64,000 bases of DNA from an uncultured Prolixibacteraceae bacterium (GTDB lineage Bacteria > Bacteroidota > Bacteroidia > Bacteroidales > FEN-979), in the NCBI GenBank assembly GCA_964449285.1, contig CAYUZX010000011.1:612-64611 (forward strand). Direction: 5' to 3'. Made by a program: the position numbers and the translations under genes. The notes beneath the pieces are model-generated. The model was not told the origin of the DNA. It searched no databases and was given only the letters and a program-made list of their open reading frames with translations. Shown piece after piece: positions 22,615 to 38,101 of the stretch; positions within the stretch are counted from its first letter, which is position 1; every line of letters starts with the position of its first letter.

Positions 22615-24279
22615 ATGAAATTAAACGTTACGATCCGTTCCTTTACACGCGAAGACACCACCTTCCTGAAAGGAATAGCCATCCTCCTGATTGTCCTGCA
22701 TAACTACTACCGGTGGGTGATTCCAATCACAGGCGAGAATGAGTTCTGGTTTAATGCATTGGCCATCAACAGAAGCTGGATCTTTTTGAGGAGCAATCCG
22801 CTGGAGATCTTCCACGTCTTTTTCAACTTTCTGGGCCATTATGGCGTCCAGGCTTTTATCGTGATCAGCGCCTATGGCCTAACACTCTCTTACCAGAAAT
22901 CCCATCCTGCCTATGGAAGGTTTGTACTGCACCGTTTCGACAAGCTCTATCCCTCCCTCATCCTTGCCGGGATCGGCTTTGTCATCGTTACGTTGTTTAC
23001 GACAGGGAATCTGATAGGGATGAATACCTTGAAAGATCTTGGTATCCAGTTTACCCTCTTTGCCAACTTGGTCCCGGGGAAGGCTATGACTATCACGGGC
23101 CCGTGGTGGTTCTACTCTTTCATCTTCCAGTTTTATCTGGTCTTTCCGCTATTGATGTGGATCCACCGGAAGAGTGGCTGGATAGGACTTGCTGTATTGG
23201 TAGTCATCGGGTATCTTTTTATTATCTTTCTCTACCAACCCATGAACCAGGCAAACCTGAATCCCTATATGACCTTCATGGGGCACCTCCCAGAACTTTG
23301 TTTCGGGATTTTTCTCGCCTCACGCGATAAGTTTAAGCTGCCGTGGTGGGCTTTCCTACTCGCACTGGTGATCCTTGTAGGAGGGAATATATACCAGTGG
23401 CTCTGGCCCTTTGCCAACCTGGCTGCAGCTGTGATCCTGGTGGTATCGATCCAGGGTCTGATCGGGATAAAAGCACGAATAAAAGGCTTCTACTCTCTTC
23501 TCTCCGCAATTGGGGTGATCTCGATGTACCTTTTTGCAGTACATGGATATCTCCGTTCTCCCTTCCTTGAACTTGCCAACACGCTGGGGAATTCCATCGC
23601 ATCGCTGCTGATTGGGATCCTCTTTGTGACTGTTGCCTGCGGTTTGGCAGCAATGCTGATGCATACCGAGTCGGCAGCAAGGCGTTGGATTGCATCCCCT
23701 TCCAATAGGAAGAGAGCCATGGCTAAGCTTTTATTGATGGTTTCCCTGGTAGTGGGCGGGTTTGCGTTGCTTTTCTTCTGGGATTATAGAAAACAGGATG
23801 AAATCACGCAAACCAAGGAAGTCATTGCATTTGAGAGCTCTCACGATTTTGAAGAGTCGATTCCGGGCCGGTACGATCTCTTTTCCGATTCGGTTGTTTA
23901 CCAGGGAGAGAGAAGTCTTATTCTGGACAATTCAAGGGCATTCTCGCCGGGCTTTATTGTCGATTTTGATTCCGTAAACCTGGCAGGGGTGTATGAAGTG
24001 GAGATCTCTGCATGGCTCTTCACAACCGAGGCGGCTACCAGCCTTCATCTGGCGATGGAGATCTGGGACAAGCCCAGCGGAATCCAGGTAGAGTGGCAAT
24101 CGGAATATATCAAGCCGGGAACCTATCAAACCACCAAGTGGTTCCAGCGTACCCTCCACTACAGCATTCCCGTCGAATTACGCAGGACGAACTATTACAT
24201 GAAGGTATACGCCTGGAAGCCGTCAAGTAGTACCTGGTACGTAGATGAGCTAAGGCTCAGGGTCAAAGCGAGGATTTAG
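22615..24279 (+). CDS. Membrane acyltransferase (acyltransferase_3/OafA-like) with C-terminal extracytoplasmic domain
   Basis: FLKGIAILLIVLHNYYRW start motif, ~10 TM segments, ~170-aa soluble tail. Confidence 0.7.
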   Translation: MKLNVTIRSFTREDTTFLKGIAILLIVLHNYYRWVIPITGENEFWFNALAINRSWIFLRSNPLEIFHVFFNFLGHYGVQAFIVISAYGLTLSYQKSHPAYGRFVLHRFDKLYPSLILAGIGFVIVTLFTTGNLIGMNTLKDLGIQFTLFANLVPGKAMTITGPWWFYSFIFQFYLVFPLLMWIHRKSGWIGLAVLVVIGYLFIIFLYQPMNQANLNPYMTFMGHLPELCFGIFLASRDKFKLPWWAFLLALVILVGGNIYQWLWPFANLAAAVILVVSIQGLIGIKARIKGFYSLLSAIGVISMYLFAVHGYLRSPFLELANTLGNSIASLLIGILFVTVACGLAAMLMHTESAARRWIASPSNRKRAMAKLLLMVSLVVGGFALLFFWDYRKQDEITQTKEVIAFESSHDFEESIPGRYDLFSDSVVYQGERSLILDNSRAFSPGFIVDFDSVNLAGVYEVEISAWLFTTEAATSLHLAMEIWDKPSGIQVEWQSEYIKPGTYQTTKWFQRTLHYSIPVELRRTNYYMKVYAWKPSSSTWYVDELRLRVKARI

Positions 24280-24977
24280 CCGTTCTTACTGATCTGTTGC
24301 AGCAGCGGAAGGTTGTCGATCCTGATCTGACGGTCGTGCAGTGAAATGATCCCATCTTCATGAAATTTGGTGAGCACACGCGTCGCACTCTCCCTCGAGA
24401 TCCCGATCAGGTCGGCCAACTCCTGCCGGGTGAAAGGAATTTCAAACTCTTTCGATTCATAGATGATTTTCGAGAAATAGAGGATGGCATCCGCTACACG
24501 GCCATAAGTCTTTTTTTGCGACTGCTTCATGAAACGGTTGAAGTTGTTGAGGTTGTCGCGGGCTACAGAGACCAGGATCTCATAGCCGAATGATCCATTT
24601 TGCTTGATCAGCTGATAAAATACAGAGATGTCGATATAGCATACTGTGATATCTGTCAAGGCAGCATAGGAGTAGTGATTGACCTTATCGCCGAAGAGGG
24701 AAGATAGGCCCAGATAACTGAATTTTCTCACGATCTGAAGGATCTGCTCCTTCTCCTGAGCCCCCTTGAAATACTCCTTTACCAATCCCGATTTCAGGTA
24801 GATGATATAGGAGGTTGGAGAGCCTTCATGGATGATGATATCCCCTTTCCTGAAAGCAGCTTCGTGCCGGCTTGTGTTAATCAAATCCAGCTCTTCCACA
24901 CCGAGTACATCAGCAGCAAAATGCCTGACAACGCAGTCGCGGCAGGATACTATATCGAGGTCAGAATCAGGAAGCAT
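24276..24977 (-). CDS. Crp/Fnr-family transcriptional regulator
   Basis: cNMP-binding-like beta-roll (FRKGDIIIHEGSP...YIIYLKSGLVK) and C-terminal HTH (RQELADLIGISRESATRVLTKF). Start moved to the ATG at 24977. Confidence 0.85.
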   Translation of the reverse strand: MLPDSDLDIVSCRDCVVRHFAADVLGVEELDLINTSRHEAAFRKGDIIIHEGSPTSYIIYLKSGLVKEYFKGAQEKEQILQIVRKFSYLGLSSLFGDKVNHYSYAALTDITVCYIDISVFYQLIKQNGSFGYEILVSVARDNLNNFNRFMKQSQKKTYGRVADAILYFSKIIYESKEFEIPFTRQELADLIGISRESATRVLTKFHEDGIISLHDRQIRIDNLPLLQQISKNG

Positions 24978-25189
24978 GGGCAAATGGCATAGAGGAGTAT
25001 GATTTCTAAAGACAAAGATGCGAAAAAAATCCATAGCAAGATGTGATAACCGACATATAAAAAAGTGAAAAACAGAAAGAAAACAAAAGATAAATCGCAC
25101 ATATAAATGTTAAAGATAGCGCGTAATAACCAATTGATAAACACATGCATGAATGCTTTTTGATCCACCCTCATGTGTATTTTTGTAGA

Positions 25190-25408
25190 ATGAAAATTGC
25201 TGTCCCAACCAATGACGGACTGAAAATCGCCACTGATCTCGGGCTTGCCGAAGCCTTTCTGGTTATTACCATTAAGGCAGAAGCAATCGTTGGTGAAGAG
25301 CTTCGGAAAAACCAGATCAACACCGAAGAGAACTTGATCACCAATACAATTCTCCGTTACCTGGAGCATGAGTACCGAAATGAGGCCAATACTTGTTGCT
25401 GCCCCTAA
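25190..25408 (+). CDS. Short NifB/NifX-like (dinitrogenase FeMo-cofactor-binding fold) protein ending in CCCP
   Basis: MKIAVPTNDGLKIA...AFLVITI resembles the N-terminus of that family, but the protein is short (72 aa) and lacks the usual HFG. It ends ...ANTCCCP*. Confidence 0.35.
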   Translation: MKIAVPTNDGLKIATDLGLAEAFLVITIKAEAIVGEELRKNQINTEENLITNTILRYLEHEYRNEANTCCCP

Positions 25409-25423
25409 CCCTACAAGAAGGCC

Positions 25424-26887
25424 ATGAGCACTGAATCACATTTTTTGCCATTTCGTAACCAGATTATCGGTCTGCGGGCTACCTTCAATTCACCTTACGG
25501 GACCCAGGAACTGGTTTATGCCGACTGGATTGGGAGCGGACGTCTTTACCAGCCTATTGAAGAGCGGATGATGAGGGAGATCGGACCCTTTGTCGCCAAC
25601 ACGCATACTGAGTCCAGCGAGACCGGGATGCTGATGACACGTGCGTACAGATACGCCCATGAGCGGATTAAAGAGCTTGTCCATGCCGGACCACACGATG
25701 TAATCCTCACTACCGGATATGGCATGACCGGTGCTATCGTGAAATTTCAACGCATTCTGGGACTCAAGGTGTGCGGAACAATCAGCGGACATGATTGTTT
25801 GAAGGAGCACGACCGTCCTGTCGTCTTCATTACGCATATGGAGCACCATTCCAACCAAACATCTTGGTATGAGACGGTAGCCGATGTGGTGGTGATTGAA
25901 CCGGGAGATGATTTGCTTGTCGATCTCAACCACCTGGAGGAGGCATTGATCAAATACAGTGACCGGAAACTCAAGATCGGCTCCTTTACCGCCTGTTCCA
26001 ACGTAACCGGAATACATACACCGGTTCACCAGATGGCGAAGCTGATGCATATGCACGGGGGAGTTGCATTCATCGACTTTGCCGCCTCAGCTCCCTATGA
26101 TGAGATCGATATGCATCCCGACGACCCGGAGGAGCAACTGGATGCCATCTTTTTCTCTCCTCATAAATTCCTGGGAGGACCCGGATCATCCGGCGTCCTC
26201 ATTTTCAACTCAAGTCTTTACCATAATGCGGTCCCCGACCAGCCCGGTGGAGGGACCGTTGACTGGACCAATCCATGGGGAGAATACAAATACCTGGATA
26301 ACATCGAGTTGCGTGAAGATGGCGGAACCCCGGGATTTTTGCAGGCGATTAAAGCAGCCCTGAGCATGGAGTTGAAGGAGCAGATGGGGGTTCCCCGGAT
26401 CCGTCAACGTGAACAAGGGCTGGTAGCACTTGCGTTTGCAGAAATGGATAGAATCCCCGACTTGCATATCCTGGCAACTGGCATCAGGGACCGTTTGGGC
26501 GTGATCTCCTTTTTCATGACCGGGATCCATTACAACCTCATCGTGAGGCTGCTCAGCGATCGGTTTGGCATCCAGTCACGTGGCGGTTGCGCGTGTGCCG
26601 GCACTTACGGACACTACCTCCTGAATGTAAGCCATGAGAAATCGGCAGAGATCACCAATCTCATCAATCATGGAGACCTCTCACTGAAGCCGGGTTGGGT
26701 CAGGCTCTCACTGCACCCGACCATGCTGGACCAGGAGGTGACCTATATCGCCGATGCCCTGAAACAGATCGGAGCTAACCATCCTTCATGGAGTGATAAC
26801 TACACTTATAACAGACATACAAATGAATTCGAACATCTGACGGAATTCAGGGACTCCATAGATGTTAAAACCTGGTTCTCTTTGTAA
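25424..26887 (+). CDS. Class V aminotransferase-fold PLP enzyme, cysteine desulfurase/selenocysteine lyase-like
   Basis: PLP-lysine context FFSPHKFLGGPGSSGVLIF. Candidate catalytic Cys loop SRGGCACAG. Confidence 0.8.
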   Translation: MSTESHFLPFRNQIIGLRATFNSPYGTQELVYADWIGSGRLYQPIEERMMREIGPFVANTHTESSETGMLMTRAYRYAHERIKELVHAGPHDVILTTGYGMTGAIVKFQRILGLKVCGTISGHDCLKEHDRPVVFITHMEHHSNQTSWYETVADVVVIEPGDDLLVDLNHLEEALIKYSDRKLKIGSFTACSNVTGIHTPVHQMAKLMHMHGGVAFIDFAASAPYDEIDMHPDDPEEQLDAIFFSPHKFLGGPGSSGVLIFNSSLYHNAVPDQPGGGTVDWTNPWGEYKYLDNIELREDGGTPGFLQAIKAALSMELKEQMGVPRIRQREQGLVALAFAEMDRIPDLHILATGIRDRLGVISFFMTGIHYNLIVRLLSDRFGIQSRGGCACAGTYGHYLLNVSHEKSAEITNLINHGDLSLKPGWVRLSLHPTMLDQEVTYIADALKQIGANHPSWSDNYTYNRHTNEFEHLTEFRDSIDVKTWFSL

Positions 26888-26907
26888 TAACTTGAAAAAA
26901 TCTGCTT

Positions 26908-27225
26908 ATGCCAACATTGGAAATTGATGGACGTCTTTTTGAGGTGGATGGGGATGGCTTCCTCTCCGATCCTCAGCTTTGGAACGACGAAGTGGCACAA
27001 CTGTTTGCCAAATATGACGGTATTGAATCGATGAATGAACAGCACTGGGCCGTCGTACGAATTATCCGTAAGAATTTTGAAGAGAAAGGGATGGCTCCGA
27101 TGATCCGTACCATTTGCCAGGAGACAGGGGTGAAACTCCGTGAGATCTATGAGTTATTCCCCCTCGGGCCGGCCCGGGGCGCTTGCCGGGTAGCCGGGCT
27201 TCCGAAACCAGATGGTTGCGTTTGA
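26908..27225 (+). CDS. dsrC: DsrC (TusE/DsrC/DsvC family) with both redox-active cysteines
   Basis: 105 aa. C-terminus GACRVAGLPKPDGCV* has Cys-x10-Cys with the penultimate Cys, which separates DsrC proper from TusE. Confidence 0.85.
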   Translation: MPTLEIDGRLFEVDGDGFLSDPQLWNDEVAQLFAKYDGIESMNEQHWAVVRIIRKNFEEKGMAPMIRTICQETGVKLREIYELFPLGPARGACRVAGLPKPDGCV

Positions 27226-27238
27226 TCCCGCTGCAGCT

Positions 27239-27850
27239 ATGACCTGGTATGAATGGATCGCTCTGTGTGCCGTGGGAATCTCCCTGGGAGTTTCTCTCGT
27301 TTACATAATACGGATAATCAGACTGGGAAAACCACATGACAATGCGCCGGCAGCCGGCAGCGTTGGCCCAGCCGTCCTCTATGCCATGACAGGCGCCATG
27401 AATCCGGCTAAAAAAGAGAGTGCTGTCCTTCATCTTCCTACCTATATTGCCGGAATTCTCTACCACCTGGGAACATTTCTTTCCATGCTACTCTTTCTTC
27501 TCATTTGGATACACCTCGCGGTCTCCCCATTACTGGTCATATTCCTCTCCTCTTTTCTGGTGGTATCAGCTGCATGCGGTATCGGGATCCTGCTGAAGAG
27601 AGTTTTAAGAAAAGAGCTTCGTTCCCTCTCTAACCCCGATGATTACCTCTCTAATAGCCTGGTTACTCTCTTCCAGATAGGGACACTCTTAACGCTTTAC
27701 CTTCCGGAGCTGGAATCCGTCTATTTTTTACTGGCCTCGATCCTATTCCTATATATACCCCTCAGCAAGCTCAAACATGTAATCTATTTTTTCGCTGCCC
27801 GGTACCACCTGGGATTCTTCTATGGTTGGAGGGGTGTGTGGCCACCTTAA
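27239..27850 (+). CDS. NarI/DsrM-like integral membrane b-type cytochrome subunit
   Basis: ~5 TM helices with conserved-looking His (LHLPTYIAGILYH; PLSKLKHVIYFF resembles the NarI-family PFSKLxH). The start is either 27212 (overlapping dsrC) or 27239. Confidence 0.6.
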   Translation: MTWYEWIALCAVGISLGVSLVYIIRIIRLGKPHDNAPAAGSVGPAVLYAMTGAMNPAKKESAVLHLPTYIAGILYHLGTFLSMLLFLLIWIHLAVSPLLVIFLSSFLVVSAACGIGILLKRVLRKELRSLSNPDDYLSNSLVTLFQIGTLLTLYLPELESVYFLLASILFLYIPLSKLKHVIYFFAARYHLGFFYGWRGVWPP

Positions 27851-27956
27851 TAGAATGACGAATTATGAATTACGAATTAGTACAGCCGAAATTCATTGCG
27901 GCTCAACAAGCAACAAAACTGCCAACCTCAAACTGCTAACTGCGAACTGCCAACTG
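27851..27956. repeat. Low-complexity stutter spacer with embedded hairpin
   Basis: GAATTATGAATTACGAATTAG, hairpin GCCGAAAT-TC-ATTGCGGC (27885-27902), then AACTGCCAAC / AACTGCTAAC / GAACTGCCAACTG. Confidence 0.75.
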
Positions 27957-29255
27957 ATGAATGACCAACTAACAAAGGAGCAAATTTCGAGGGGGCTGGA
28001 GCCCCTCAGCGGGAATGGCGACAGCAAGTTGCTGACGTACCTGAACAGTTGCGTCCATTGTGGCTTGTGCGCTGAGAGCTGCCTCTTTTACCTTCCTACC
28101 AAAGATCCACGCCTTACCCCGGCCAGGAAAGTCGACCTGATCTCTTCCATTTATAAACGGTATTACACGTTTTCGGGGAAATACCTACCTGCCTTAACTC
28201 ACGCCAGGACTCTTGACAAAGCGGCAGCAGATGAGATGGTCGACCTGTTCTTCGGCTCCTGTTCAATTTGCGGGAGATGTACGATGCATTGCTCCATCGG
28301 AGTCGATATAGCATACCTGGTATCCGTTGGCCGGAAGATGCTTGCCAACATGAACCTGGTTCCTGCTACTCTCCAGTCGACCGTTAATGCAGCGATTGAA
28401 ACGGGCAACAACATGGCCATACCAACTGCCGATTATCTGGATACCCTCAAATGGATGGAGGAGGAGATGTCTGATGAGGTGAGTGACCCGGAAGCCTGTA
28501 TTCCGGTGGATCAGCCAGGCAAACGAATATTGTATACACTGAATCCCAGGGAACCCAAGTTTTATCCGCTTTCCATTGCCGCCATGGCGAAGATTTTCTA
28601 TGCAGCAGGAGAGAGTTGGACCTTATCCACACGGATGTATGATGTGACCAACTACGCCTTTTTCTCCGGGAATATGGAAGAGGCTAGCCTGATAGCAGAC
28701 CGGCTGTGGCAAGAGATGAAACACCTCGATGCCGGAAGCCTTGTACTTGGAGAATGTGGTCATGGCACCCGTGCTTTCCGGTGGGAGTCTCCGAACTACC
28801 TGGAACGGGGTTTCCCTTTTCCTGTGATGAGTTCGGTTGAGTGCATTGCAAACTATATCCGGGAGGGCAAAATACGGCTGGATCCGGAAAAGATAACAGC
28901 AAAAGTAACGATGCACGATCCCTGCAACCTTGTTAGAAGTGGGGGCGTCATCCGGGAACAACGATTTATCCTGAATCAATTTGTCAGGAACTTTATAGAG
29001 ATGACTCCCAGTGGAACCGACAACCATTGTTGCGGAGGTGGAGGAGGATTGCTTTCCATGAGTGAATACAACGAACGGCGTTTGGGGGCAGGAGGGATCA
29101 AGGCGGAGCAGATCCGGCAAACCGGGGCGAAAATCGTAGTCACCCCCTGCCACAACTGTGTGGATCAGCTAATCCAGCTGAATACTTACTATAAGCTGGG
29201 CGTGCAGATTCAAACGATGGCCGAGATCGTGGCGGACGCGCTGATAGTTAGGTAA
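27957..29255 (+). CDS. DsrK/HdrD-like Fe-S protein (two 4Fe-4S motifs + CCG domains)
   Basis: CVHCGLCAESC and CSICGRCTMHC. CCG-type motifs HDPCNLVR, NHCCGGGGG, TPCHNCVDQ. Start moved to the ATG at 27957 because the upstream extension is the stutter spacer. Confidence 0.8.
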   Translation: MNDQLTKEQISRGLEPLSGNGDSKLLTYLNSCVHCGLCAESCLFYLPTKDPRLTPARKVDLISSIYKRYYTFSGKYLPALTHARTLDKAAADEMVDLFFGSCSICGRCTMHCSIGVDIAYLVSVGRKMLANMNLVPATLQSTVNAAIETGNNMAIPTADYLDTLKWMEEEMSDEVSDPEACIPVDQPGKRILYTLNPREPKFYPLSIAAMAKIFYAAGESWTLSTRMYDVTNYAFFSGNMEEASLIADRLWQEMKHLDAGSLVLGECGHGTRAFRWESPNYLERGFPFPVMSSVECIANYIREGKIRLDPEKITAKVTMHDPCNLVRSGGVIREQRFILNQFVRNFIEMTPSGTDNHCCGGGGGLLSMSEYNERRLGAGGIKAEQIRQTGAKIVVTPCHNCVDQLIQLNTYYKLGVQIQTMAEIVADALIVR

Positions 29256-29383: not shown

Positions 29384-30535
29384 ATGATCTACCTCGACAA
29401 CTCAGCTACCACATTTCCCAAACCCGACGTGGTTTATGATTTCATGAACACATTTTACCGAAGCCATGGAGTGAGTCCGGGCCGTTCGGGATTTGATGCC
29501 GCCATCGAGACAGAAGAGGTGGTGCACGAGACCCGTAAGTTGCTCACCGGCCTCTTTAACGGGGATGACCCGAACCGGCTCACCTTCAGTTACAACGCCA
29601 GCGATTCACTCAACATGATCCTACAGGGACTTGCCAACCCGGGCGACCATGTGATCACTACTATGCTGGAGCACAACTCAGTTCTTCGCCCACTGTTCCA
29701 TCTTTCACAGGATGGCATTATCGAGGTAACTCATCTTCCGTTCGATGGCAAGGGGTATGTGAATCCCGATGACTTCCGGAAAGCCATCCAGAAAACTACC
29801 CGCATGGTGGTCGTCAACCACTGTTCAAACGTGATCGGAACGGTGCAACCACTAGCCGAAATCGGAACTCTCTGTAAGGAACATGGTCTGCTTTTCATCG
29901 TGGATGCCAGCCAGAGCGCTGGCGCCATCCCCATTGACATGAAGGCGATGGGGATCGACGTGCTTGTATTTACTGGCCACAAATGCCTGATGGGCCCTAC
30001 AGGCATCGGAGGCTCTTACGTGATGGAAGGAGTGCCGGTGAGGTTGACCCGTTTTGGGGGTACAGGGGTTCGGTCGGCTCAGAAAACACACCTGGAAGAG
30101 TTCCCATATCGACTTGAATGTGGCACACTCAACATGTTGGGAGTAGCCGGACTGAATGCCGGGGTGAAATGGGTACTCGAGCAGGGCATCGAAAATCTCC
30201 ACCGGAAAGAGATCGCATTATGGGATACGTTACGCAAAGGGATCCAGTCAATCAACAATGTGATCACCTATTGTGCCGACAGCCCCGATAACCGGAATCC
30301 GGTTTTGAGCCTCAATGTCAGGGGTTTCGAATCAGGTGACGTGGGTACGATGCTCGATGTTGATTACAACATTGCCAGCCGCACCGGATTGCAATGCGCT
30401 CCATTGGTTCATCAAGGAATCGGAACAGATCAAATCCATGGTACCGTCCGCCTCAGTCTGGGCCCATTTAATACGGAATTACACATTGATACAGCCATTC
30501 AGGCGATCACCGAAATCGCGGCGATCAGACGTTAA
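29384..30535 (+). CDS. Cysteine desulfurase family protein (class V aminotransferase fold)
   Basis: MIYLDNSATTFPKP start, PLP-lysine context FTGHKCLMGPTGIGG, catalytic Cys loop SRTGLQCAPL. Confidence 0.85.
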   Translation: MIYLDNSATTFPKPDVVYDFMNTFYRSHGVSPGRSGFDAAIETEEVVHETRKLLTGLFNGDDPNRLTFSYNASDSLNMILQGLANPGDHVITTMLEHNSVLRPLFHLSQDGIIEVTHLPFDGKGYVNPDDFRKAIQKTTRMVVVNHCSNVIGTVQPLAEIGTLCKEHGLLFIVDASQSAGAIPIDMKAMGIDVLVFTGHKCLMGPTGIGGSYVMEGVPVRLTRFGGTGVRSAQKTHLEEFPYRLECGTLNMLGVAGLNAGVKWVLEQGIENLHRKEIALWDTLRKGIQSINNVITYCADSPDNRNPVLSLNVRGFESGDVGTMLDVDYNIASRTGLQCAPLVHQGIGTDQIHGTVRLSLGPFNTELHIDTAIQAITEIAAIRR

Positions 30536-30545: not shown

Positions 30546-30561
30546 GTGTGATATAAATCAC
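30546..30561. promoter_or_regulatory. Perfect CRP-type palindrome TGTGA-N6-TCACA
   Basis: TGTGATATAAATCACA read directly. It lies 11 nt after the preceding stop, ~55 nt upstream of a TAnnTTTG box and 105 nt upstream of the ATG at 30667. A Crp/Fnr regulator is encoded at 24276-24977. Confidence 0.45.
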
Positions 30562-30615
30562 ACAGCCGCACAATACATTTCACACGAAAATTTATCCGTG
30601 AATTTTACTATAACA

Positions 30616-30623
30616 TACCTTTG
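30616..30623 (+). promoter_or_regulatory. Candidate -7 box TACCTTTG (TAnnTTTG)
   Basis: Motif match 44 nt upstream of the ATG at 30667. Confidence 0.35.
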
Positions 30624-30666
30624 CAGTTATATATCTGCATATAACAATATTTAAATAATTTGCCTT

Positions 30667-31212
30667 ATGGATCTGTTATTCACTGAACAACTGGAAGACC
30701 TCAAGAAACGGTGCGACAACCTGGAAAAGGGAACCAAAGACCAGATATCCATGGTTGTATTTTCGGGAGATCTCGACAAACTGCTAGCGGCTATGATCAT
30801 CGCCACCGGTGCTGCTGCTTACGATATGAAAGTGAAACTCTTTTTTACATTTTGGGCGACTGCTGCTTTGCGGGATCCCAGGAAATCGGCTAAAGGTAAA
30901 AGCTTTATGGAAATGATGTTTGGCTGGATGCTCCCAAAGGGTAGTGCGAAGACCAAGCTGTCGAAGATGAACATGGGCGGCATGGGAACGGCCATGATGA
31001 AAGGGATCATGAAGAAACATAACGTTGCCTCACTGGAGGAACTGATTAAAGTGGCCGGCGAGATGGGTGTGGAGATAGCGCTCTGCGAAATGTCCATGAA
31101 CCTCATGGGATTTAAAAAGGAGGAGATGATCGACTACCCGAACATGACCGTCTGCGGCGTAGCCACCTTCCTGAGTGATGCCTCAGAGAGTAAGGTGCAA
31201 CTATTTATATAA
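30667..31212 (+). CDS. DsrE/DsrF-like sulfur-relay family protein (COG2210-type)
   Basis: ISMVVFSGDLDKLLAAMIIATGAAA...FFTFWA and conserved Cys context IALCEMSMNLMG. Confidence 0.7.
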   Translation: MDLLFTEQLEDLKKRCDNLEKGTKDQISMVVFSGDLDKLLAAMIIATGAAAYDMKVKLFFTFWATAALRDPRKSAKGKSFMEMMFGWMLPKGSAKTKLSKMNMGGMGTAMMKGIMKKHNVASLEELIKVAGEMGVEIALCEMSMNLMGFKKEEMIDYPNMTVCGVATFLSDASESKVQLFI

Positions 31213-31297: not shown

Positions 31298-31549
31298 ATG
31301 AATACAGCTGAATTAACTACTCTGCAATCCAAGAAAATTGTTGATGCACGCGGAACTGCTTGTCCAGGCCCACTATTAGCTGCCAAAAAAGCAATTGGTG
31401 AAATCAACTCTGGCGAAATTATGGAGATTTACTCCTCCGATGAAGGAACCAAAAACGACATCCCACGGTGGTGCCAGAAGATGAGCCACGAATTCCTGGG
31501 AATCGTTGAAGAGCCAAGCTATTCCCGTATATTTTTAAGAAAAGCGTAA
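31298..31549 (+). CDS. tusA: TusA/SirA-family sulfurtransferase
   Basis: 83 aa. DARGTACPGPLLAAKKAI contains the CPxP active-site motif. Confidence 0.85.
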   Translation: MNTAELTTLQSKKIVDARGTACPGPLLAAKKAIGEINSGEIMEIYSSDEGTKNDIPRWCQKMSHEFLGIVEEPSYSRIFLRKA

Positions 31550-31634: not shown

Positions 31635-32045
31635 ATGGAATCAAATCAACAATCTCCGAAAATCCTGGTCTTCTCCACGGACAAAATATCCGACCCGGGA
31701 ATCGACCAAGCCGGGTTACGGAAGTTGCACTATTCGCCTTCTGTCTATGTCATCAGCATGCCATGTTCATCGGGAATCAAACCACGCTGGATAATGCATG
31801 CCTTCGAACAGGGATTCGACGGGGTCTTCATCGCGGCCGACGGCCACGAATGCTCCTATAGTGCGAAATGTCCCGACCATACGAATACTATTATTAAGGA
31901 GGCTCAACGACTGATGGAGGAGAAGAATATCAGCCCGAAACGGATCCGGATGGCAGCCCTCTGTTCGGTATGTGCCGAACCGTTTGTTGGGCATATGAAC
32001 AACTTCAGCAAGATTTTGTCGGAGATCGGACCGGATGCGGGATAA
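31635..32045 (+). CDS. MvhD/FlpD-like (methyl-viologen-reducing hydrogenase delta subunit family) protein
   Basis: ILVFSTD...MPCSSGIKPRWIMHAFEQGFDGVFIAADGHECSY has the Cys pattern and length of the family. Confidence 0.75.
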   Translation: MESNQQSPKILVFSTDKISDPGIDQAGLRKLHYSPSVYVISMPCSSGIKPRWIMHAFEQGFDGVFIAADGHECSYSAKCPDHTNTIIKEAQRLMEEKNISPKRIRMAALCSVCAEPFVGHMNNFSKILSEIGPDAG

Positions 32046-32092
32046 TAAGTCCCGGGCGGACCGTATCAGCAAAAACGCGTAATTGATCACAG

Positions 32093-34903
32093 ATGAAAAA
32101 GAACGAAGAGAAATATGACGCCCTGGTTGTGGGTGGTGGGATTGCGGGACAGGAAGCTGCCTTGAGCCTCGCCAACATGAACCGAAAGGTGTTGCTGGTG
32201 GAGAAGGACCTCTCTATCGGGGGGAAGATGATCCAGCTATCGAAGGTCTTTCCCACTCTCGACTGTGCTGCTTGCATCACCACCCCCAAGATGTCGGAAA
32301 CGGCTCGCCACGGAAACATCACGGTGATGCTCAACAGCGATATCAAGAAGATAGATCGGAATGAGAAGGGATTTCATGTAGAGGTGACAAAGAATCCTCG
32401 CTACGTGAAGCCGGAAGCCTGTACCGGATGCCAGGAGTGCGAACAAGCCTGTCCGGAGATCCGTCTCGACCAATACAATCGCAACCTGGCAGGCCGGAAG
32501 GTGGCTTACATACCCTTTACCCTTGCCAACCCACGCATCGCCGTGATCGACCGCCAGGATGAGTCGGCCCCCTGCATCGCTGCTTGTCCGGGCGGCGTGA
32601 AGCCCTATGGATATGTATCTCTGGTACGGAACGGCCAATACGAGGAGGCGATGCACCTACACCTCGAAGATGCCCCGATCCCGGGCAGCCTCGGCCGTGC
32701 CTGCTATGCTCCCTGCCAGGGCGAATGCACCCGCGGCAGCGTGGACGGAGCAGTAGACATGAGGCGCATTAAGCGTTTCTTTGCGGAGGAGTATTACGGA
32801 AAACACCCCGAGCCCCCGGCTGTAACCCTGAAAGACCCAACAGGGAAAAAAGTCGCTGTGGTAGGCTCCGGCCCGGCCGGACTTACTGCTGCCTATTTCC
32901 TGGCGCTCAATGGGAACAAGGTCACCATCTTTGAAGCTGCTCCTGAACCGGGAGGCATGCTCAAACTCACCATCCCCGAATACCGGCTTCCCAAAGAGGT
33001 GGTCGACCGGGATATCCGGAACATCACTTCCCTGGGGGTGGAGATAGTCTGCAACCACCGGGTATCCAGTCTGAAAAAGCTGAAAGAGCAGGGGTTCGAT
33101 GCCGTCTTCGTATCTGTCGGCACCCACGAAACCAGCAAACTGATGATCGAAGGAGCCGAACTCGAAGGCGTTGTCTCTTGCCTCGACTTCCTACTGGAGG
33201 CCAACATCGGCCAGCGGGCCGATTTAACCGGAAAGAGGGTGATGGTGATCGGCGGAGGAAACACCGCCATCGATGCAGCCCGTACCGCCCTGCGTCTGGG
33301 AGCTTCCAACGTGGATATTATCTACCGTAGAAGCAGGGAGGAGATGCCCGCTTTCGGTCCCGAAATCGAAGAGGCCGAAGAGGAGGGGATCAACATTCGC
33401 ATCCTCAGCAATCCGGTACGCTTCAGCAGCTCCCACGGCCACGTAACGCACGTGGAGATGGTGAAGATGGAGTTGGGAGAGCCCGACGAAAGTGGCCGAC
33501 GACGTCCCGTGGAGGTCATAGGATCCAATTTCACGGAGCCGGTCGACTTCGTGATCGAAGCGATTGGATTACGCCCCTCCACTTCACCCTTTGCAACCGA
33601 GCTCTCTATCCATAAAGATGGAACGATCCAGGCTAACCCGGATACCCTCCAAACTTCCACCGGCTGGATCTTCGCCGGCGGCGACGCCGTCACCGGCCCT
33701 ACCACAATCATCGAAGCAGTGGGACAGGGAAAGAAAGCCGCTTTCTACCTCGATAAATTCATGCAGGGGGAAGAACTCTCACAGTTCAGTTTCGGAGAGA
33801 AACTGGAACCGGTCGATAAAAAGAAATTGCTTACCCACAAGAAAATTGAACTACAGAAGCCTATTATCGATAAATTCAGGAAGCCGGAAGAGCGGATCAA
33901 GGACTTTCTGGATGTAGAGCTAACCTATACCGAAGAGGAAGCCCGGATGAGTGCTTCGCGTTGCCTCGACTGCAGCAACTGCCGCGAATGCCATCAGTGT
34001 ATTTCTGCCTGTCCGGCGAATGCCATCGACTTCTCCCAGAAGAAAGAGGAGGTGCCAATCTATGCCAGCTCCATCATCCTCTCATCGGGATTCAAGCTCT
34101 TTAGCGCCACTCAGAAACCTCACTATGGATTTGGGAAATACCCCAACGTGGTGGATGCACTCCAGATGGACCGCTTGATAGCGCCGACACGTCCATACAA
34201 CAATGTCCTGCGTCCGGGTGATGGGAAAACGCCCGACAATATTGCCTATGTGCTGTGTACCGGTTCGCGCGATTCGAGCCTGGAGAACTATCCCTCGTGT
34301 GGGGCCGAGTGCGCCAACAACCCCATCTGTTCGCAGATCTGCTGCATGTACTCGATTAAGCAGGCTCAACTACTGATGGGAGCGTTGCCGCTGGCCGACA
34401 TCACCATCTACTACATCGATATCCGCTCCTTTGGGAAGGGATATGATGAGTTCTTCCAGGAAGCCTCCTCAATGGGAGTCAACTTCATCAAAGGAAAAGT
34501 AGCCAAAATCAGGGGAAAAGAGGATAAAAGCGGTGACCTTACGGTACGGATCGAAGATATTGAAACCGGCCAGGTGAAGGAGTTTAACCACGATATGGTG
34601 GTGCTCTCTTCCGGTGTAAGGCCTGAGAACAGCATCATCAAAACCTTTAACGGGGAAGCTCCCGAACTGGATGAATTCAGGTTTATCCGCCAGGCAGATC
34701 CGCTGATGAATCCGGCCCGTACAACTGTGGATGGTGTCTTTGTTGCCGGTACAGCTGCGGCTCCGATGGATATTCCCGATTCGATTCTTTCAGCGGGATG
34801 TGCTGCCTCAGAAGTCGCTGCTTACCTCAACACCATGGAAGATCAGCCAATGGCCTCCCCGGGGATGAATCAGGTGATGGAAAATGTTGCCCAGGAGCGT
34901 TAA
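32093..34903 (+). CDS. HdrA-like flavoprotein with an inserted GltD/NfnB/DsrL-type NAD(P)H oxidoreductase module (936 aa)
   Basis: HdrA N-terminus (VVGGGIAGQEAA, FPTLDCAACITTPKM). Then the GltD-type block CIAACPGG..., KKVAVVGSGPAGLTAAYFLA, KRVMVIGGGNTAIDAA, IFAGGDAV. Then ferredoxin CLDCSNCRECHQCISACP. Then the HdrA C-terminus (CTGSRD, CCMYSIKQA, YYIDIRSFGKGYDEF). Confidence 0.8.
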   Translation: MKKNEEKYDALVVGGGIAGQEAALSLANMNRKVLLVEKDLSIGGKMIQLSKVFPTLDCAACITTPKMSETARHGNITVMLNSDIKKIDRNEKGFHVEVTKNPRYVKPEACTGCQECEQACPEIRLDQYNRNLAGRKVAYIPFTLANPRIAVIDRQDESAPCIAACPGGVKPYGYVSLVRNGQYEEAMHLHLEDAPIPGSLGRACYAPCQGECTRGSVDGAVDMRRIKRFFAEEYYGKHPEPPAVTLKDPTGKKVAVVGSGPAGLTAAYFLALNGNKVTIFEAAPEPGGMLKLTIPEYRLPKEVVDRDIRNITSLGVEIVCNHRVSSLKKLKEQGFDAVFVSVGTHETSKLMIEGAELEGVVSCLDFLLEANIGQRADLTGKRVMVIGGGNTAIDAARTALRLGASNVDIIYRRSREEMPAFGPEIEEAEEEGINIRILSNPVRFSSSHGHVTHVEMVKMELGEPDESGRRRPVEVIGSNFTEPVDFVIEAIGLRPSTSPFATELSIHKDGTIQANPDTLQTSTGWIFAGGDAVTGPTTIIEAVGQGKKAAFYLDKFMQGEELSQFSFGEKLEPVDKKKLLTHKKIELQKPIIDKFRKPEERIKDFLDVELTYTEEEARMSASRCLDCSNCRECHQCISACPANAIDFSQKKEEVPIYASSIILSSGFKLFSATQKPHYGFGKYPNVVDALQMDRLIAPTRPYNNVLRPGDGKTPDNIAYVLCTGSRDSSLENYPSCGAECANNPICSQICCMYSIKQAQLLMGALPLADITIYYIDIRSFGKGYDEFFQEASSMGVNFIKGKVAKIRGKEDKSGDLTVRIEDIETGQVKEFNHDMVVLSSGVRPENSIIKTFNGEAPELDEFRFIRQADPLMNPARTTVDGVFVAGTAAAPMDIPDSILSAGCAASEVAAYLNTMEDQPMASPGMNQVMENVAQER

Positions 34904-34943
34904 CCAAATTGATTGTACTGAAACTGATAATACCCTTAAGAAA

Positions 34944-36989
34944 ATGGGAAATCAAGAGAAGAAAAAACGGATAGGAGTTTATATCTGCCACTGTGGCGGG
35001 AACATCTCCGATTACGTGGATGTGGAACAGCTCCGCGATATGATGGCTGGAGAAGAGAGCGTGGCCATCTCCAAGAATGTTATGTTTGCCTGCGCCGACT
35101 CCAACCAGAAAGAGATGATCAAAGACATCCAGGAAAATAATCTGGATGGCATCGTGGTAGCCTCCTGCTCCCCCAAACTGCATCTCCATACGTTTCGCAA
35201 CGTGGCGCAACGTGCGGGATTGAATCCATACAACTACGTTCAGGTCAACGTGCGTGAGCAGTGCTCCTGGGCCCATTCCGACCATCCTGATCAGGCATCC
35301 GTGAAGGCTGCAGGCCTTATCCGGGCAGGGATCAAACGGGTCTCTTATTCGGAAGCCCTGGAACCGGTGAAGATCACCGCGGTCAAAAGCGTTGTGGTCA
35401 TCGGCGCCGGCGTTTCCGGGATGCGGGCTGCCATTGAACTAGCCCGGATGGGGAATGAGGTTTTCCTTGTTGAAAAGGAGGCAACCGTCGGCGGACATGT
35501 TGCCGGCTGGAACAGCCTCTATCCTACAGGTACTTCCGGGAAGGAACTGACGCAGAAGATGCTGGAGCAAATACGCCGGATCCCATCCATCAAGCTCTTT
35601 ACCAGTGCAACCGTTAAGAACGTCACCGGAAGCCTTGGGAACTTCACTGTAGAGGTGATGGTAAGCTCCCACGGAGAAGAGGTGCTGAAACTTCCGGCCG
35701 GGGCAATCCTGGTTACCACAGGGTTCAGCCCGAACATCCCGGAAGAAGACCAGTTCGGGTACGGCTTGTCGGAATCGGTGATCACCCTTCCCGCGTTCAA
35801 GAATCTCCTTCAGGAATATCCAAACCCAGGAAACCCAGACGGAAAGAAAAATGGGAAAGCTTCAGGAAAACTGATGGTAAACGCAAAAGAGATCCGGAGC
35901 GTAGCTTTCATCTACTGCGTTGGGATGCGTCAGAGTGGCGGTCCCAATAAATATTGCTCACGTACCTGTTGCACCAGTACAATGCACGCATCCCTGGAGT
36001 TGCATGAAAAATTCAGCGATGTGAAGTCGATGCATCTCTATCGCGACATTCGTACTTACGGGAAACAAGAGGTGTTTTATGACCAGGCTTCCAGGCAGGG
36101 AGATCTCTTTCTGATGTATAAAGAGAATGACCCACCTGTAGTTTCGGTAATCGGGAGCCAGGTGACGATCGAAATAACCGACCACCTGACAGCGAAGCGC
36201 CGGCTGGAATTGAAACCCGACCTGGTTGTGCTGGTGACGGGGATGGAAGCCCGTGCCGACAGCAAGGAGATGGCACAGCTGCTAAAGATCCCCATTGGGA
36301 ACGACCGGTTCTTCAATGAGATCCATCCGAAGCTGAGGCCGGTTGAGACGGTCATCAATGGCGTCATGCTGGGAGGCTCCTGCCAGGGCCCGAAAAACAT
36401 CACCGAGGCTATCCAGTCTTCCATGTCGGCGGCAGCCAAAATCAATGCCCTTCTCTGCAAGGAGAGCCTGGAGATGGAGCCCATCGTGGCGCGGGTTAAC
36501 GAAGAGGCCTGCACCTGGTGCGGAAAATGTGCCGAGGTGTGCGATTACGACGCCATCTTCCAGATGGAGACAAACGGCAAGGTGGTAGCTGGCGTCAACG
36601 GGGCTACATGTACCGGATGCGGCATCTGTGCCCCGGTTTGTCCGGCCGATGCCATTGAGGTGGCACAATATACTAACAACGAGATCGAGTCGATGATCGA
36701 CGGCTTCATGGCGCCGGTCACACTGGAGGAAAAGCTTGCAGAAGTGGGAAGTGAAGAGGGCGCTGGCGACAGGCTGATGAAAGAGTATCCCGGTATCTGG
36801 AAAGAAATCCTGCACCAGATTGACAACGAGCCATTGACCATCCCGCAGATAGCAAAGCAGATGCAGCGGGAAAGCGACCTTGTCACCTACCATGTCATGA
36901 CCATGAATAAATATCATATCCTCGAAGCGGCTGGCATGGACGAAGATGATGCCTATTTCCTCTACACGCCTAAAATCCGATTATCATGA
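34944..36989 (+). CDS. HdrA/QmoB-like flavoprotein with C-terminal 2x[4Fe-4S] and a winged-helix-like tail
   Basis: IGVYICHCGGNISDYVD, VVVIGAGVSGMRAAIELA, CSRTCCTSTMHA, CTWCGKCAEVC, CTGCGICAPVCP. The last ~70 aa (ILHQIDNEPLTIPQIAKQMQRESDLVTYHVMTMNKYHILE) look wHTH-like. Confidence 0.8.
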   Translation: MGNQEKKKRIGVYICHCGGNISDYVDVEQLRDMMAGEESVAISKNVMFACADSNQKEMIKDIQENNLDGIVVASCSPKLHLHTFRNVAQRAGLNPYNYVQVNVREQCSWAHSDHPDQASVKAAGLIRAGIKRVSYSEALEPVKITAVKSVVVIGAGVSGMRAAIELARMGNEVFLVEKEATVGGHVAGWNSLYPTGTSGKELTQKMLEQIRRIPSIKLFTSATVKNVTGSLGNFTVEVMVSSHGEEVLKLPAGAILVTTGFSPNIPEEDQFGYGLSESVITLPAFKNLLQEYPNPGNPDGKKNGKASGKLMVNAKEIRSVAFIYCVGMRQSGGPNKYCSRTCCTSTMHASLELHEKFSDVKSMHLYRDIRTYGKQEVFYDQASRQGDLFLMYKENDPPVVSVIGSQVTIEITDHLTAKRRLELKPDLVVLVTGMEARADSKEMAQLLKIPIGNDRFFNEIHPKLRPVETVINGVMLGGSCQGPKNITEAIQSSMSAAAKINALLCKESLEMEPIVARVNEEACTWCGKCAEVCDYDAIFQMETNGKVVAGVNGATCTGCGICAPVCPADAIEVAQYTNNEIESMIDGFMAPVTLEEKLAEVGSEEGAGDRLMKEYPGIWKEILHQIDNEPLTIPQIAKQMQRESDLVTYHVMTMNKYHILEAAGMDEDDAYFLYTPKIRLS

Positions 36990-38101
36990 ATCAAGTAGAT
37001 ACAGCATTCTCAAAAGAGCTGGCGAAATACGGGGCCAGCGATTTCGCCGCCTGTTACAACTGCGGAAACTGCACCGCCGTGTGCGACCTCACCGAAAAGC
37101 AGGCCAACTTCCCGCGGATGTTCATCCGTTTCGGCGTTTTGGGACTGAAGAAGGAGATCCTGAAGAGCCGTGAAGTGTGGCTTTGTTACGCCTGCGGCGA
37201 GTGTACCAAGGCCTGCCCGCGACAGGCCGGTCCTGCGCCATATATGTCTGCCATCCGGCGATATGCCATCGCGAGCTACGAGCCCACCGGCCTCACCAAA
37301 ATGCTCTTTAAAAGCAATCCGTTTGCCATTGTTTTCACTTTGGCGCTGGCCGTATTGCTGGGTTTCTTCCTCTTCACCATCAAGCCCGACCATGAAGTCT
37401 CGCGCTGGATCTTCAACTGGATGCCGTTTGATGTGATCCACGACCTGGGGATGATTATCTTCGGACTTACCGGATTGGCCCTGGTGATCGGTATCATCAA
37501 CATGATGCGGCACCTTTACAGCGGAAATGAAAAACCGGTTTTCGACTGGAAGAAAGTGCCCGGAGCATTTCGCTATGTGCTGGACGAGATGGCTTTGCTA
37601 AAGCGATACCGTAACTGCGATGACGACGAAGAGAATTTCTGGGTCAGGAAACCCGAGTGGCAGCACCCGTGGTTTATCCACTGGTCGATCATGTGGGGCT
37701 TCATCGGGCTGCTCGTTGCCACTATGCTCGACTTCCTCTTCAAAGACCCTGCACTCGCCATCTGGTGGCCCAGCCGGATCCTGGGTACGCTGGCCGGACT
37801 GCTGATGATGTATGGCACCTCCATGGCCATGTATTACAGGACGAAAAAAGTGACCAAGACATATGCCGAAACCCACTTTTCCGACTGGATGTTCCTGGTT
37901 TTCCTCTGGATTGCCGGATTTACAGGCTTCTGGCTTGAGGTGGCAGTAGCTCTTGGCGGCCATACCATCCTCAACCAGGTGATCTTCGTGATCCACACCA
38001 TCATTTCGATGGAGCTGGTGATCCTCTTTGCCTTCTCCAAATTCGCTCACGCCATCTACCGGCCCGTGGCGCTGTTTTCCTATTATTTTGTGAAGTCGTA
38101 A
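36986..38101 (+). CDS. QmoC-like fusion: HdrC-type 2x[4Fe-4S] domain + NarI/HdrE-type membrane domain
   Basis: CYNCGNCTAVCD and CYACGECTKACP, followed by ~6 TM helices with conserved-looking His. The start overlaps the upstream stop (ATGA at 36986-36989). Confidence 0.75.
   Translation: MNQVDTAFSKELAKYGASDFAACYNCGNCTAVCDLTEKQANFPRMFIRFGVLGLKKEILKSREVWLCYACGECTKACPRQAGPAPYMSAIRRYAIASYEPTGLTKMLFKSNPFAIVFTLALAVLLGFFLFTIKPDHEVSRWIFNWMPFDVIHDLGMIIFGLTGLALVIGIINMMRHLYSGNEKPVFDWKKVPGAFRYVLDEMALLKRYRNCDDDEENFWVRKPEWQHPWFIHWSIMWGFIGLLVATMLDFLFKDPALAIWWPSRILGTLAGLLMMYGTSMAMYYRTKKVTKTYAETHFSDWMFLVFLWIAGFTGFWLEVAVALGGHTILNQVIFVIHTIISMELVILFAFSKFAHAIYRPVALFSYYFVKS

Follow-up and report, generated by a model that had tools for sequence, protein, structure and literature searches.

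A Gene Cluster Joining a DsrC Cassette to a TusA-Associated Hdr/Qmo-Like Module in an Uncultured Prolixibacteraceae Bacterium: A Candidate System for Sulfane-Sulfur Reduction

Results

Twelve Co-Directional Genes Behind a Divergent Crp/Fnr-Family Regulator

The DNA analyzed here is a stretch of 64,000 nucleotides (referred to as the window) from an uncultured Prolixibacteraceae bacterium (assembly GCA_964449285.1, contig CAYUZX010000011.1, positions 612 to 64,611). A list of its open reading frames (ORFs) combined with profile searches places at positions 25190-38101 of the plus strand a cluster of 12 co-directional genes, upstream of which a gene for a Crp/Fnr-family regulator is oriented divergently (Table 1). 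The 12 genes encode, in this order, a NifX-like protein, the pyridoxal-phosphate (PLP) enzyme AT5a, DsrC, a membrane subunit (DsrM'), a CCG-type iron-sulfur (FeS) protein (DsrK'), a cysteine desulfurase, DsrE2, TusA, an MvhD/FlpD-like protein, an HdrA of the HdrL type, a second HdrA, and a QmoC-like protein, and the gaps between them do not exceed 131 nt. The original prediction, which had been made from the sequence letters, counted 13 co-directional genes, a figure to be corrected to 12 plus the divergent regulator; its assignments of all cluster genes were borne out at the family level by the profile searches.

Two autonomous modules, both widespread in their own right, are joined in the cluster by a lineage-specific fusion: a cassette consisting of DsrC, DsrM', DsrK', and the cysteine desulfurase, and an Hdr module running from DsrE2 to the QmoC-like protein. 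The full fusion exists on six contigs, i.e., the window and the contigs of the related loci L007, L091, L092, L098, and L171. Because the same order recurs on these six independent contigs with protein identities of 53-93%, the arrangement is not due to chance, and the conservation of gene order in relatives on which the original prediction depended was indeed found. That prediction had described a single supercluster; the adjacency stands, but it had missed that the cluster is made of two modules which mostly occur apart. Its statement that dsrAB, aprAB, sat, and hdrB are missing from the window agrees with the present analysis: among ORFs of at least 350 amino acyl residues (aa) in the 64-kb window no sulfite-reductase, APS-reductase, or ATP-sulfurylase domain was detected, and no HdrB was found in the window either.

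Table 1. Genes and sequence features of the cluster, given in positions of the window.
Feature	Position	Strand	Characteristics
Crp/Fnr-family regulator, 233 aa, start MLPDSD...	24276..24977	-	Pfam cNMP_binding, HTH_Crp_2, Crp
Degenerate Crp-type box TGTGATAACCGACATA	25042..25057		Two mismatches to TGTGA-N6-TCACA; divergent intergenic region
Second copy of TAnnTTTG motif	25178..25185		Before NifX-like gene; weak evidence
NifX/Nitro_FeMo-Co-like small protein, 72 aa	25190..25408	+	C-terminal CCCP conserved; homologue in L086 matches PF02579
AT5a, class V PLP enzyme, 487 aa, distantly SufS-like	25424..26887	+	PF00266, 141 bits
DsrC-type protein, 105 aa	26908..27225	+	PF04358, 115 bits (cut-off 24.9); TIGR03342, 96.4 bits (cut-off 53.5)
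DsrM' membrane subunit, 212 aa	27212..27850	+	NarI-like helical fold in AF2 model; weak HmcE/TmcC matches
DsrK' CCG iron-sulfur protein, DsrK/HmcF/TmcB/HdrD-like	27957..29255	+	Two ferredoxin-type Cys motifs and a complete CCG motif
Cysteine desulfurase	29384..30535	+	TIGR01977, 424 bits (cut-off 377); GHK and RTGLQCAP conserved
Exact Crp-type box TGTGATATAAATCACA	30547..30562		120 nt upstream of DsrE2 start; only exact copy in the 64-kb window
Bacteroidota-type -7 motif TAnnTTTG	30616..30623	+	44 nt upstream of DsrE2; weak evidence
DsrE2-type protein	30667..31212	+	PF13686, 170 bits; one conserved Cys
TusA-family sulfur carrier	31298..31549	+	CPGP motif conserved
MvhD/FlpD-like protein	31635..32045	+	Cys ligands conserved
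HdrL-type HdrA, 936 aa	32093..34903	+	Split by NfnB/GltD-type NAD(P)H-FAD-2[4Fe-4S] insert at about residues 155-560
Second HdrA-like flavoprotein, 681 aa, full-length	34944..36989	+	C-terminal ferredoxin domain; fused winged-helix-like tail of about 85 aa
QmoC-like fusion of HdrC-type di-cluster domain and NarI-like membrane domain	36986..38101	+	N-terminus aligns to HdrC, membrane part to NarI
Terminator-like hairpin with T-run	38106..38132	+	Directly 3' of the last gene; consensus match only

The DsrC Cassette

The DsrC-type protein ends in GACRVAGLPKPDGCV, where both cysteines of a C-x10-C arrangement are kept (...AGLPKPDGCV), and this C-terminus is invariant across 57 relatives. The program DiSCo recognizes DsrC by two C-terminal cysteines and by the motif AGLPKPTGC, in which it allows no more than one mismatch (PMC8477390); the window protein has both cysteines and departs from the motif at a single residue, with D in the place of T. 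Its best solved relatives are the DsrC subunits 1JI8, 2XSJ_C, and 2V4J_C (E about 1e-28), and the sole TusE-like structure that matches, annotated only as a sulfurtransferase, follows at an E value of 3e-8.

The membrane subunit DsrM' has no Pfam match, including none to PF02665. Its AF2 model (pLDDT 93.7) has structural matches to NarI chains only, with TM values of 0.42-0.51. Three histidines are conserved throughout the family, H85 and H189 being invariant and H74 nearly so, and the family is small, comprising 317 clusters among 1.84 billion representatives.

The start of DsrK' was moved to 27957 on the basis of homologue lengths and direct translation. The protein scores 300.8 with HmcF (cut-off 750), 299.4 with TmcB (cut-off 735), and 236.5 with the DsrK model NF045796 (cut-off 400), all of which are below the equivalog cut-offs. 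It contains the CCG motif C324-x34-C359C360-x38-C399-x2-C402 (numbered as in alignment A2, which exceeds a count from the Met at 27957 by one residue), and none of the five cysteines varies among 12 homologues; its second spacer comprises 38 residues versus 35-36 in the reference motif C-x(31-39)-CC-x(35-36)-C-x2-C. The fold of the AF2 model, which is of moderate confidence (pLDDT 69.9), matches EtfD, LutA, and HdrB. A sequence search against solved structures returned EtfD only, and weakly, whereas the likeness to HdrB emerged from the fold comparison. The cysteine desulfurase that completes the cassette belongs to the family TIGR01977, which includes the selenocysteine lyase SclA, but scores only 319 bits with SclA itself (cut-off 525).

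A metagenome scan with DsrK' yielded at least 443 relatives, of which 83 loci were analyzed. Each gene of the cassette is present in 60-68 of these 83 loci, the shortfall being mostly due to contig ends, and in most of them the cassette stands alone. The 83 loci are probably all from Bacteroidota. Named homologues of DsrC and DsrK' belong to Bacteroidales or Bacteroidota metagenome-assembled genomes (MAGs) with a single exception labelled Alphaproteobacteria, and among the best 120 DsrC and DsrK' homologues there are only MAGs and no cultured host. Upstream of DsrC, 37 cassette loci encode a Cys-rich protein of about 84 aa with seven cysteines and without a Pfam family (for example at 8787-9038 of L088), which the window lacks. 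Beyond this frequent companion, no other conserved gene family surrounds the cassette in the 83 loci. Assemblies GCA_026391805.1 and JAPLDH are among the genomes with the cassette or the fusion.

In the related locus L088 (positions 1270-16114; 3.55-Mb contig ctg82139c of ERZ21831265), the genes ahead of the cassette encode TatA, a Psr-like molybdopterin enzyme together with its NrfD and FeS subunits, two halves of YeeE/YedE, a rhodanese with a membrane anchor, and AT5a, and those behind it encode a thioredoxin, an SQR-like flavoprotein of 485 aa, and a DsrE-like protein. This region looks like a larger sulfur island pointing to imported sulfur. Since the cassette lies there beside Psr-like, YeeE/YedE, and rhodanese genes, cysteine is not the sole candidate source of sulfur.

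The TusA-Associated Hdr Module

Within the Hdr module of the window, TusA has weak matches to YedF models in addition to its CPGP motif. The insert that splits HdrL aligns to NfnB-type modules with E values of 1e-112 to 1e-80 and its flanks align to HdrA with E values of about 1e-95; the name HdrL is used for an HdrA with added NAD(P)H/FAD domains in PMC12142623. The second HdrA keeps the expected cofactor residues. Its winged-helix-like tail, which is fused in Bacteroidota, is encoded in other phyla by a small gene of its own; a DsrD identity considered for this small protein was dropped, since Pfam gives weak generic winged-helix matches and no DsrD. The QmoC-like protein reaches 189.1 bits over its full length with the QmoC equivalog NF038018 (cut-off 300), and its membrane domain has five predicted helices and four largely conserved histidines. 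The module has the Qmo-type arrangement, i.e., an HdrC-like domain fused to a NarI-like membrane part together with two HdrA-like subunits.

Relatives of the module were sought in one genome per species with an alignment of the HdrA/NfnB fusion as query and were found in at least 597 species-level genomes; the counts given here refer to the best 80 of these at least 597 loci. The core order is [DsrE2]-TusA-MvhD-HdrL-HdrA, with TusA in 75, MvhD in 77, and DsrE2 in 67 of the 80 loci, and the TusA gene lies directly upstream of mvhD in 75 of them. The module spans at least 12 bacterial lineages as well as archaea, and its order is kept in Bacteroidota, Spirochaetota, Gemmatimonadota, Acidobacteriota, "delta" lineages, Bacillota (including Desulfofundulus thermobenzoicus), Actinomycetota, Chloroflexota, Kiritimatiellota, several Proteobacteria, and Thermoplasmata archaea. 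A small winged-helix-like protein comes after HdrA, and the module ends either in a QmoC-like protein (42/80) or in a soluble HdrC with a CCG-domain HdrB (25/80), never in both. The HdrC/HdrB ending belongs to other phyla and was not seen in the original prediction. Neither sat nor aprAB occurs in the 80 related Hdr loci.

In its plain Bacteroidales form the module consists of the Crp-family regulator, DsrE2, TusA, MvhD, HdrL, HdrA, and QmoC, and this form is carried by the cultured Tenuifilum osseticum. In that organism, a second Hdr-like set lies 1.3 kb downstream of the module (L173, 17124-22151) and encodes a di-cluster protein, two CCG proteins, a pyridine-nucleotide-disulfide oxidoreductase, and a ferredoxin; it could supply the missing CCG catalytic subunit. 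Several Bacteroidales loci have an insert of about 0.8-0.9 kb between the HdrL and HdrA genes (L174 at 12752-13529, L016-L019, L021, L023, L028, L029, and L033), which in L174 codes for a four-helix-bundle protein of 106 aa similar in kind to those of intervening sequences in 23S rRNA.

Some relatives of the Hdr module have the NifX-like gene and AT5a added in front. The assignment of a NifX-like mini-protein ending in CCCP, made in the original prediction, holds by way of full-length relatives of 113 aa, which match PF02579 (32 bits for the L086 protein) and keep the CCCP tail. Compared with them, the window gene has the same start and the same C-terminal ...NTCCCP and an in-frame internal deletion of about 41 aa; the NifX-like gene of L097 is truncated similarly. 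In AT5a, the PLP lysine (SPHKF) and a candidate catalytic cysteine (RGGCACAG) are conserved.

A Common Regulator and a Common Box

The start of the regulator was corrected to 24977, again from homologue lengths and direct translation. Its relatives possess an N-terminal C-x2-C-x4-C motif (e.g., CRDCKEKSC) that resembles the cluster motif of FNR-like proteins, and in the window regulator the third cysteine of this motif is replaced by Phe (SCRDCVVRHF, 24900-24977).

In 2.57 Mb of relatives' DNA, 35 exact TGTGA-N6-TCACA boxes were observed versus about 2.5 expected by chance. Twenty-eight of them are at most 400 nt from the start of a located cluster gene, and the remaining seven occupy equivalent promoter positions in loci outside the gene-position tables. 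In most box-bearing Bacteroidota loci the box lies 100-165 nt upstream of DsrE2, and all loci that have the NifX/AT5a/DsrC part also have the box between this part and the regulator gene. At the place equivalent to the degenerate box of the window, the box is exact in L007, L091, L092, L098, L100, and L171, and the closest relatives, L091 and L092, have exact boxes at both places. An FNR-type box (TTGAT-N4-ATCAA) was rejected in favor of the CRP type for want of a consistent match. The same regulator gene, accompanied by AT5a in some loci, is found in front of a solitary Hdr module (L086), of a solitary DsrC cassette (L095-L100), or of the two combined.

Because the same TGTGA-N6-TCACA box precedes both modules, they appear to share one regulon, the box being the putative target of the Crp-family regulator, under which the window probably has two transcription units. 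The common regulator and box together with the repeated fusion constitute the main evidence that the two modules cooperate. The TAnnTTTG motif does not exceed chance when counted over the whole window, and a scan for sigma-70 promoters and terminators gave counts at chance level as well, its sole notable feature being the hairpin after the last gene.

Surroundings of the Cluster

The G+C content is 0.52-0.56 over the Hdr/QmoC genes (32000-38000) and 0.42-0.48 in both flanks, which could reflect acquisition from elsewhere or merely protein composition. Downstream of the cluster (39198-43037) lie genes for a SUKH/SMI1-KNR4 protein with TPR on the plus strand and for a 920-aa protein with two AAA domains on the minus strand, which are probably unrelated to the sulfur genes. 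A 514-aa ORF on the minus strand (18151-19695) has no Pfam match and overlaps by about 300 nt the start of a histidine-kinase gene (19382-21337); it may not be a real gene. T9SS sorting domains are present among the window proteins and, like the names of all close homologues, indicate a member of the Bacteroidota.

Discussion

A Possible Route From Persulfide to Hydrogen Sulfide

Our preferred interpretation, to which we assign a probability of roughly 0.45, is that the cluster encodes a Crp-controlled system for the reduction of sulfane (persulfide) sulfur that was made by fusing the two modules. Each step of the mechanism is deduced from gene content. The two PLP enzymes would extract the sulfur of cysteine as an enzyme-bound persulfide, and in relatives a rhodanese and YeeE-type importers may bring in extracellular sulfur. 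The sulfur would then be handed to the cysteines of carriers, i.e., TusA, DsrE2, perhaps the CCCP tail of the NifX-like protein, and DsrC. On persulfurated DsrC, the second cysteine would resolve the persulfide to an oxidized disulfide or trisulfide form with release of H2S, and the CCG iron-sulfur site of DsrK' would re-reduce DsrC with menaquinol electrons delivered through the NarI-like DsrM'. A complex of MvhD, HdrL, HdrA, and QmoC would pass electrons from NAD(P)H to the quinone pool, so that the predicted chain in the window runs from the HdrC domain through the cytochrome b of QmoC, the quinone pool, and the putative cytochrome b of DsrM' to DsrK'. QmoC and DsrM'K' would in this manner replace, by way of the quinone pool, the direct transfer from HdrC to HdrB of the soluble form in other phyla, and the mutually exclusive endings of the Hdr module suggest just such a choice between direct and membrane-routed transfer to a CCG subunit. 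Homology alone would further allow for ferredoxin to be co-reduced through flavin-based bifurcation at HdrA and for energy to be conserved in a quinone loop. The net reaction would convert cysteine or sulfane sulfur and NAD(P)H to H2S, with alanine as a further product when cysteine is the source, and might provide a fermenting anaerobe with an electron sink or a simple respiration.

This interpretation is supported by the cohesion of the DsrC cassette, by the steady association of the Hdr module with sulfur carriers, by the retention of catalytic signatures, namely the cysteine pair of DsrC, the CCG motif of DsrK', the histidines of DsrM' and QmoC, the lysine and cysteine of both PLP enzymes, the CPGP motif of TusA, and the cysteine of DsrE2, and by the kind of genes that relatives add to the cluster (Psr-like enzyme, YeeE/YedE, rhodanese, SQR-like flavoprotein, DsrE, and thioredoxin). 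The sulfur-relay and redox reading of the original prediction survives in part: the cooperation of DsrC/DsrMK-like with Hdr/Qmo-like components gains support from the six fusions and the shared Crp gene and box, whereas cysteine is just one of the candidate sources of sulfur, and energy conservation and bifurcation are still hypothetical.

Several points weigh against persulfide reduction by this route. The reduction of persulfides by menaquinol is thermodynamically marginal. DsrK', QmoC, DsrE2, and TusA all score under the equivalog cut-offs of NCBIfam. The best structural match of DsrK' is EtfD, and not every CCG protein of the kind of EtfD, LutA, and GlpC is a disulfide reductase. Most QmoC-type loci have neither a CCG protein nor DsrC nearby, and the model does not explain what TusA and DsrE2 do there. 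Finally, the regulatory part of the window copy of the cluster shows signs of decay, i.e., the deletion in the NifX-like gene, the lost cysteine of the regulator, and the degenerate first box.

A more far-reaching proposal would be that many anaerobic Bacteroidota run a DsrC cycle without sulfite reductase, in which sulfane sulfur, imported or derived from cysteine, is loaded onto DsrC and a dedicated DsrM'K' uses menaquinol to form H2S, and that the TusA-associated Hdr complex, with HdrL-HdrA-MvhD-QmoC coupling NAD(P)H to quinone and possibly, through bifurcation, to ferredoxin, turns this cycle into an energy-conserving cysteine or persulfide respiration, thereby representing a class of Hdr enzymes with a TusA-borne substrate. 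In this extended form we regard the proposal as rather doubtful.

Relation to Known Systems

The cluster fails the equivalog or context tests of each of its nearest known systems while sharing their building blocks, and we class it as a variant of known Hdr/Qmo/Dsr-type systems. With QmoABC it has in common two HdrA-related flavoproteins, a QmoC-type fusion of HdrC-like and NarI/HdrE-like parts, and an MvhD-type module. It is distinct from QmoABC in that one HdrA contains an NfnB/GltD-type NAD(P)H module, in that MvhD is separate instead of fused to QmoB, in the QmoC score below the cut-off, and in having TusA and DsrE2 as conserved partners in the place of aprAB and sat; furthermore, soluble HdrC and HdrB take the position of QmoC in the related loci of other phyla. 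The cassette resembles DsrMK, HmcEF, and TmcBC in combining a membrane subunit that resembles cytochrome b with a cytoplasmic FeS protein that has a C-terminal CCG domain, beside a two-cysteine DsrC. In contrast to these systems, DsrK' stays under their cut-offs, DsrM' is a member of its small separate family without a Pfam NarI match, neither the window nor the conserved cassette encodes DsrJ, DsrO, or DsrP, a periplasmic cytochrome subunit is lacking, and the cassette adds a cysteine desulfurase and often the 84-aa Cys-rich protein while having no conserved dsrAB-like neighbor. Minimal DsrMK forms without DsrJ, DsrO, and DsrP are known.

HdrA flavoproteins, an MvhD connector, and NAD(P)H input are also features of HdrABC-MvhAGD, HdrA2B2C2, and FlxABCD-HdrABC, and an HdrC/HdrB pair like theirs is present in 25 of the 80 related loci, but the window has neither HdrB nor a hydrogenase and its module is accompanied by TusA and DsrE2. 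Compared with FlxABCD-HdrABC, the NAD(P)H module is inserted in HdrA and does not form a separate FlxA; an NADH-dependent reduction of DsrC has been proposed for Flx-Hdr. A fusion of the same HdrA/NfnB-like kind is HdrL of Desulfobacterium autotrophicum, which likewise has partners with MvhD domains, and the description of it in the accessible portion of PMC12142623, on which this comparison is based, mentions no link to TusA, DsrE2, or a QmoC-like subunit.

Cysteine desulfurase, TusA (CPxP), a DsrE-family protein, and a DsrC/TusE acceptor also make up the Rhd-TusA-DsrE2-DsrEFH-DsrC relay of sulfur oxidizers and the IscS-TusA-TusBCD-TusE relay of E. coli. Unlike these relays, the cluster has no DsrEFH/TusBCD, MnmA, or DsrAB, and its TusA and DsrE2 are below equivalog cut-offs; the embedding of the relay in redox machinery suggests reduction rather than oxidation or biosynthesis. 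From the sHdr system (hdrC1B1A-hyp-hdrC2B2 with LbpA) it differs in that no HdrB1/B2 and no lipoate-binding protein are encoded in the cluster or its conserved neighborhoods, and from the YTD cluster (YedE-TusA-DsrE2 with two hypothetical proteins) in that no Sulf_transp protein, i.e., no YedE-like permease, is encoded in the window; in L088 the YeeE/YedE halves adjoin the DsrC cassette and not TusA. The regulator is a typical Crp/Fnr protein in its cNMP-binding domain and Crp-type helix-turn-helix (HTH), and the palindromic TGTGA-N6-TCACA boxes nearby are its presumed binding sites.

Alternative Explanations

The window might hold one part of an ordinary split dsr/qmo locus, with DsrAB or another sulfite reductase encoded elsewhere in the genome, DsrC and DsrM'K' acting in sulfite respiration as usual, and the Qmo-like complex serving an Apr-like partner. 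The window protein is of the true DsrC type and closest to the gamma subunits associated with DsrAB, and reductive-type Dsr proteins including DsrAB have been found in some Bacteroidetes/Chlorobi assemblies (PMC8477390). Nevertheless, flanks of up to 10 kb contain no conserved dsrAB-like neighbor in either the 83 cassette or the 80 Hdr loci, the window contains no DsrJOP, DsrD, aprAB, or sat, DsrK' and QmoC do not reach their equivalog cut-offs, and the cassette brings its own cysteine desulfurase, an enzyme that to our knowledge is not part of canonical dsr loci. The named homologues, save the one labelled Alphaproteobacteria, come from Bacteroidales or Bacteroidota MAGs, and we are not aware of sulfite respiration in Bacteroidales. 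Judged by the window and these flanks, a split locus is improbable. A role of the cluster in the homeostasis or detoxification of reactive sulfur species (persulfides, polysulfides, or sulfide stress), without a function as an energy source or electron sink, seems unlikely, although neighbors in some relatives favor it: genes for OsmC, DUF302, YgaP-like, DsrE, TauE, thioredoxin, and SQR-like proteins adjoin the cluster in relatives, CoA-disulfide-reductase-like genes are near the module in five loci, and the core module occurs in very diverse anaerobes. On the other hand, an FeS-rich, quinone-linked complex of about 3000 residues with two HdrA-type flavoproteins would be a costly device for this task, and the tie to persulfide-making PLP desulfurases argues for a deliberate flux of sulfur. 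The chemistry in fact overlaps with that of the proposed persulfide reduction, from which detoxification differs mainly in physiological purpose.

If the cluster were instead a biosynthetic relay of sulfur or selenium, for tRNA thiolation, for cofactor or FeS assembly, or for the supply of selenide to SelD, its redox proteins would do no more than keep the carriers reduced. JGI names the DsrC homologues "tRNA 2-thiouridine synthesizing protein E," the desulfurase family TIGR01977 takes in SclA, TusA resembles YedF weakly, and the family of the NifX-like protein binds metal-sulfur clusters. Yet DsrC keeps the second cysteine and the DsrC-specific motif and is far closer to DsrC structures than to the TusE-like one, mnmA, tusBCD, selD, and selenoenzyme genes are absent from the window and the conserved neighborhoods, and two quinone-linked membrane subunits plus an NAD(P)H-dependent pair of HdrA proteins would be hard to explain, so that a biosynthetic role strikes us as quite improbable. 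We consider it more improbable still that two unrelated operons happen to lie side by side without functional coupling. Both modules occur by themselves far more often than in fused form, and the window probably comprises two transcription units, the second with its own box and promoter motif at 30547-30623; but the fusion is kept on six contigs at protein identities of 53-93%, the same Crp box lies ahead of both units, and the same Crp gene lies ahead of either module in relatives, in some with AT5a.

Significance

No published description of either module or of their fusion was found in the full-text literature, outside of which many subscription papers lie; what was retrieved concerns other systems, i.e., Flx/Hdr, YTD, sHdr, and canonical Dsr. 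Within the literature searched, this agrees with the original prediction, which did not recognize the combination as described. The finding extends beyond the cluster considered there in that the TusA-Hdr module is widely distributed and the DsrC cassette autonomous.

DsrC counts as the hallmark partner of dissimilatory sulfite reductase, and a conserved, self-contained cassette without dsrAB nearby would give it a second role. DiSCo treats DsrC in genomes lacking DsrAB as a false positive (PMC8477390). If the interpretation is true, DsrC and DsrMK alone would be unreliable markers of sulfite or sulfate respiration in metagenomes. In case TusA-bound sulfur is the substrate, the Hdr module would define a new and widespread branch of Hdr-type enzymes, and with Tenuifilum osseticum and T. 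thalassicum cultured carriers of the core module exist in which the idea is open to direct study. The proposed system would have a bearing on how H2S is formed in guts, digesters, and stratified lakes when cysteine or elemental sulfur is the source, and on the redox balancing of fermenting anaerobes.

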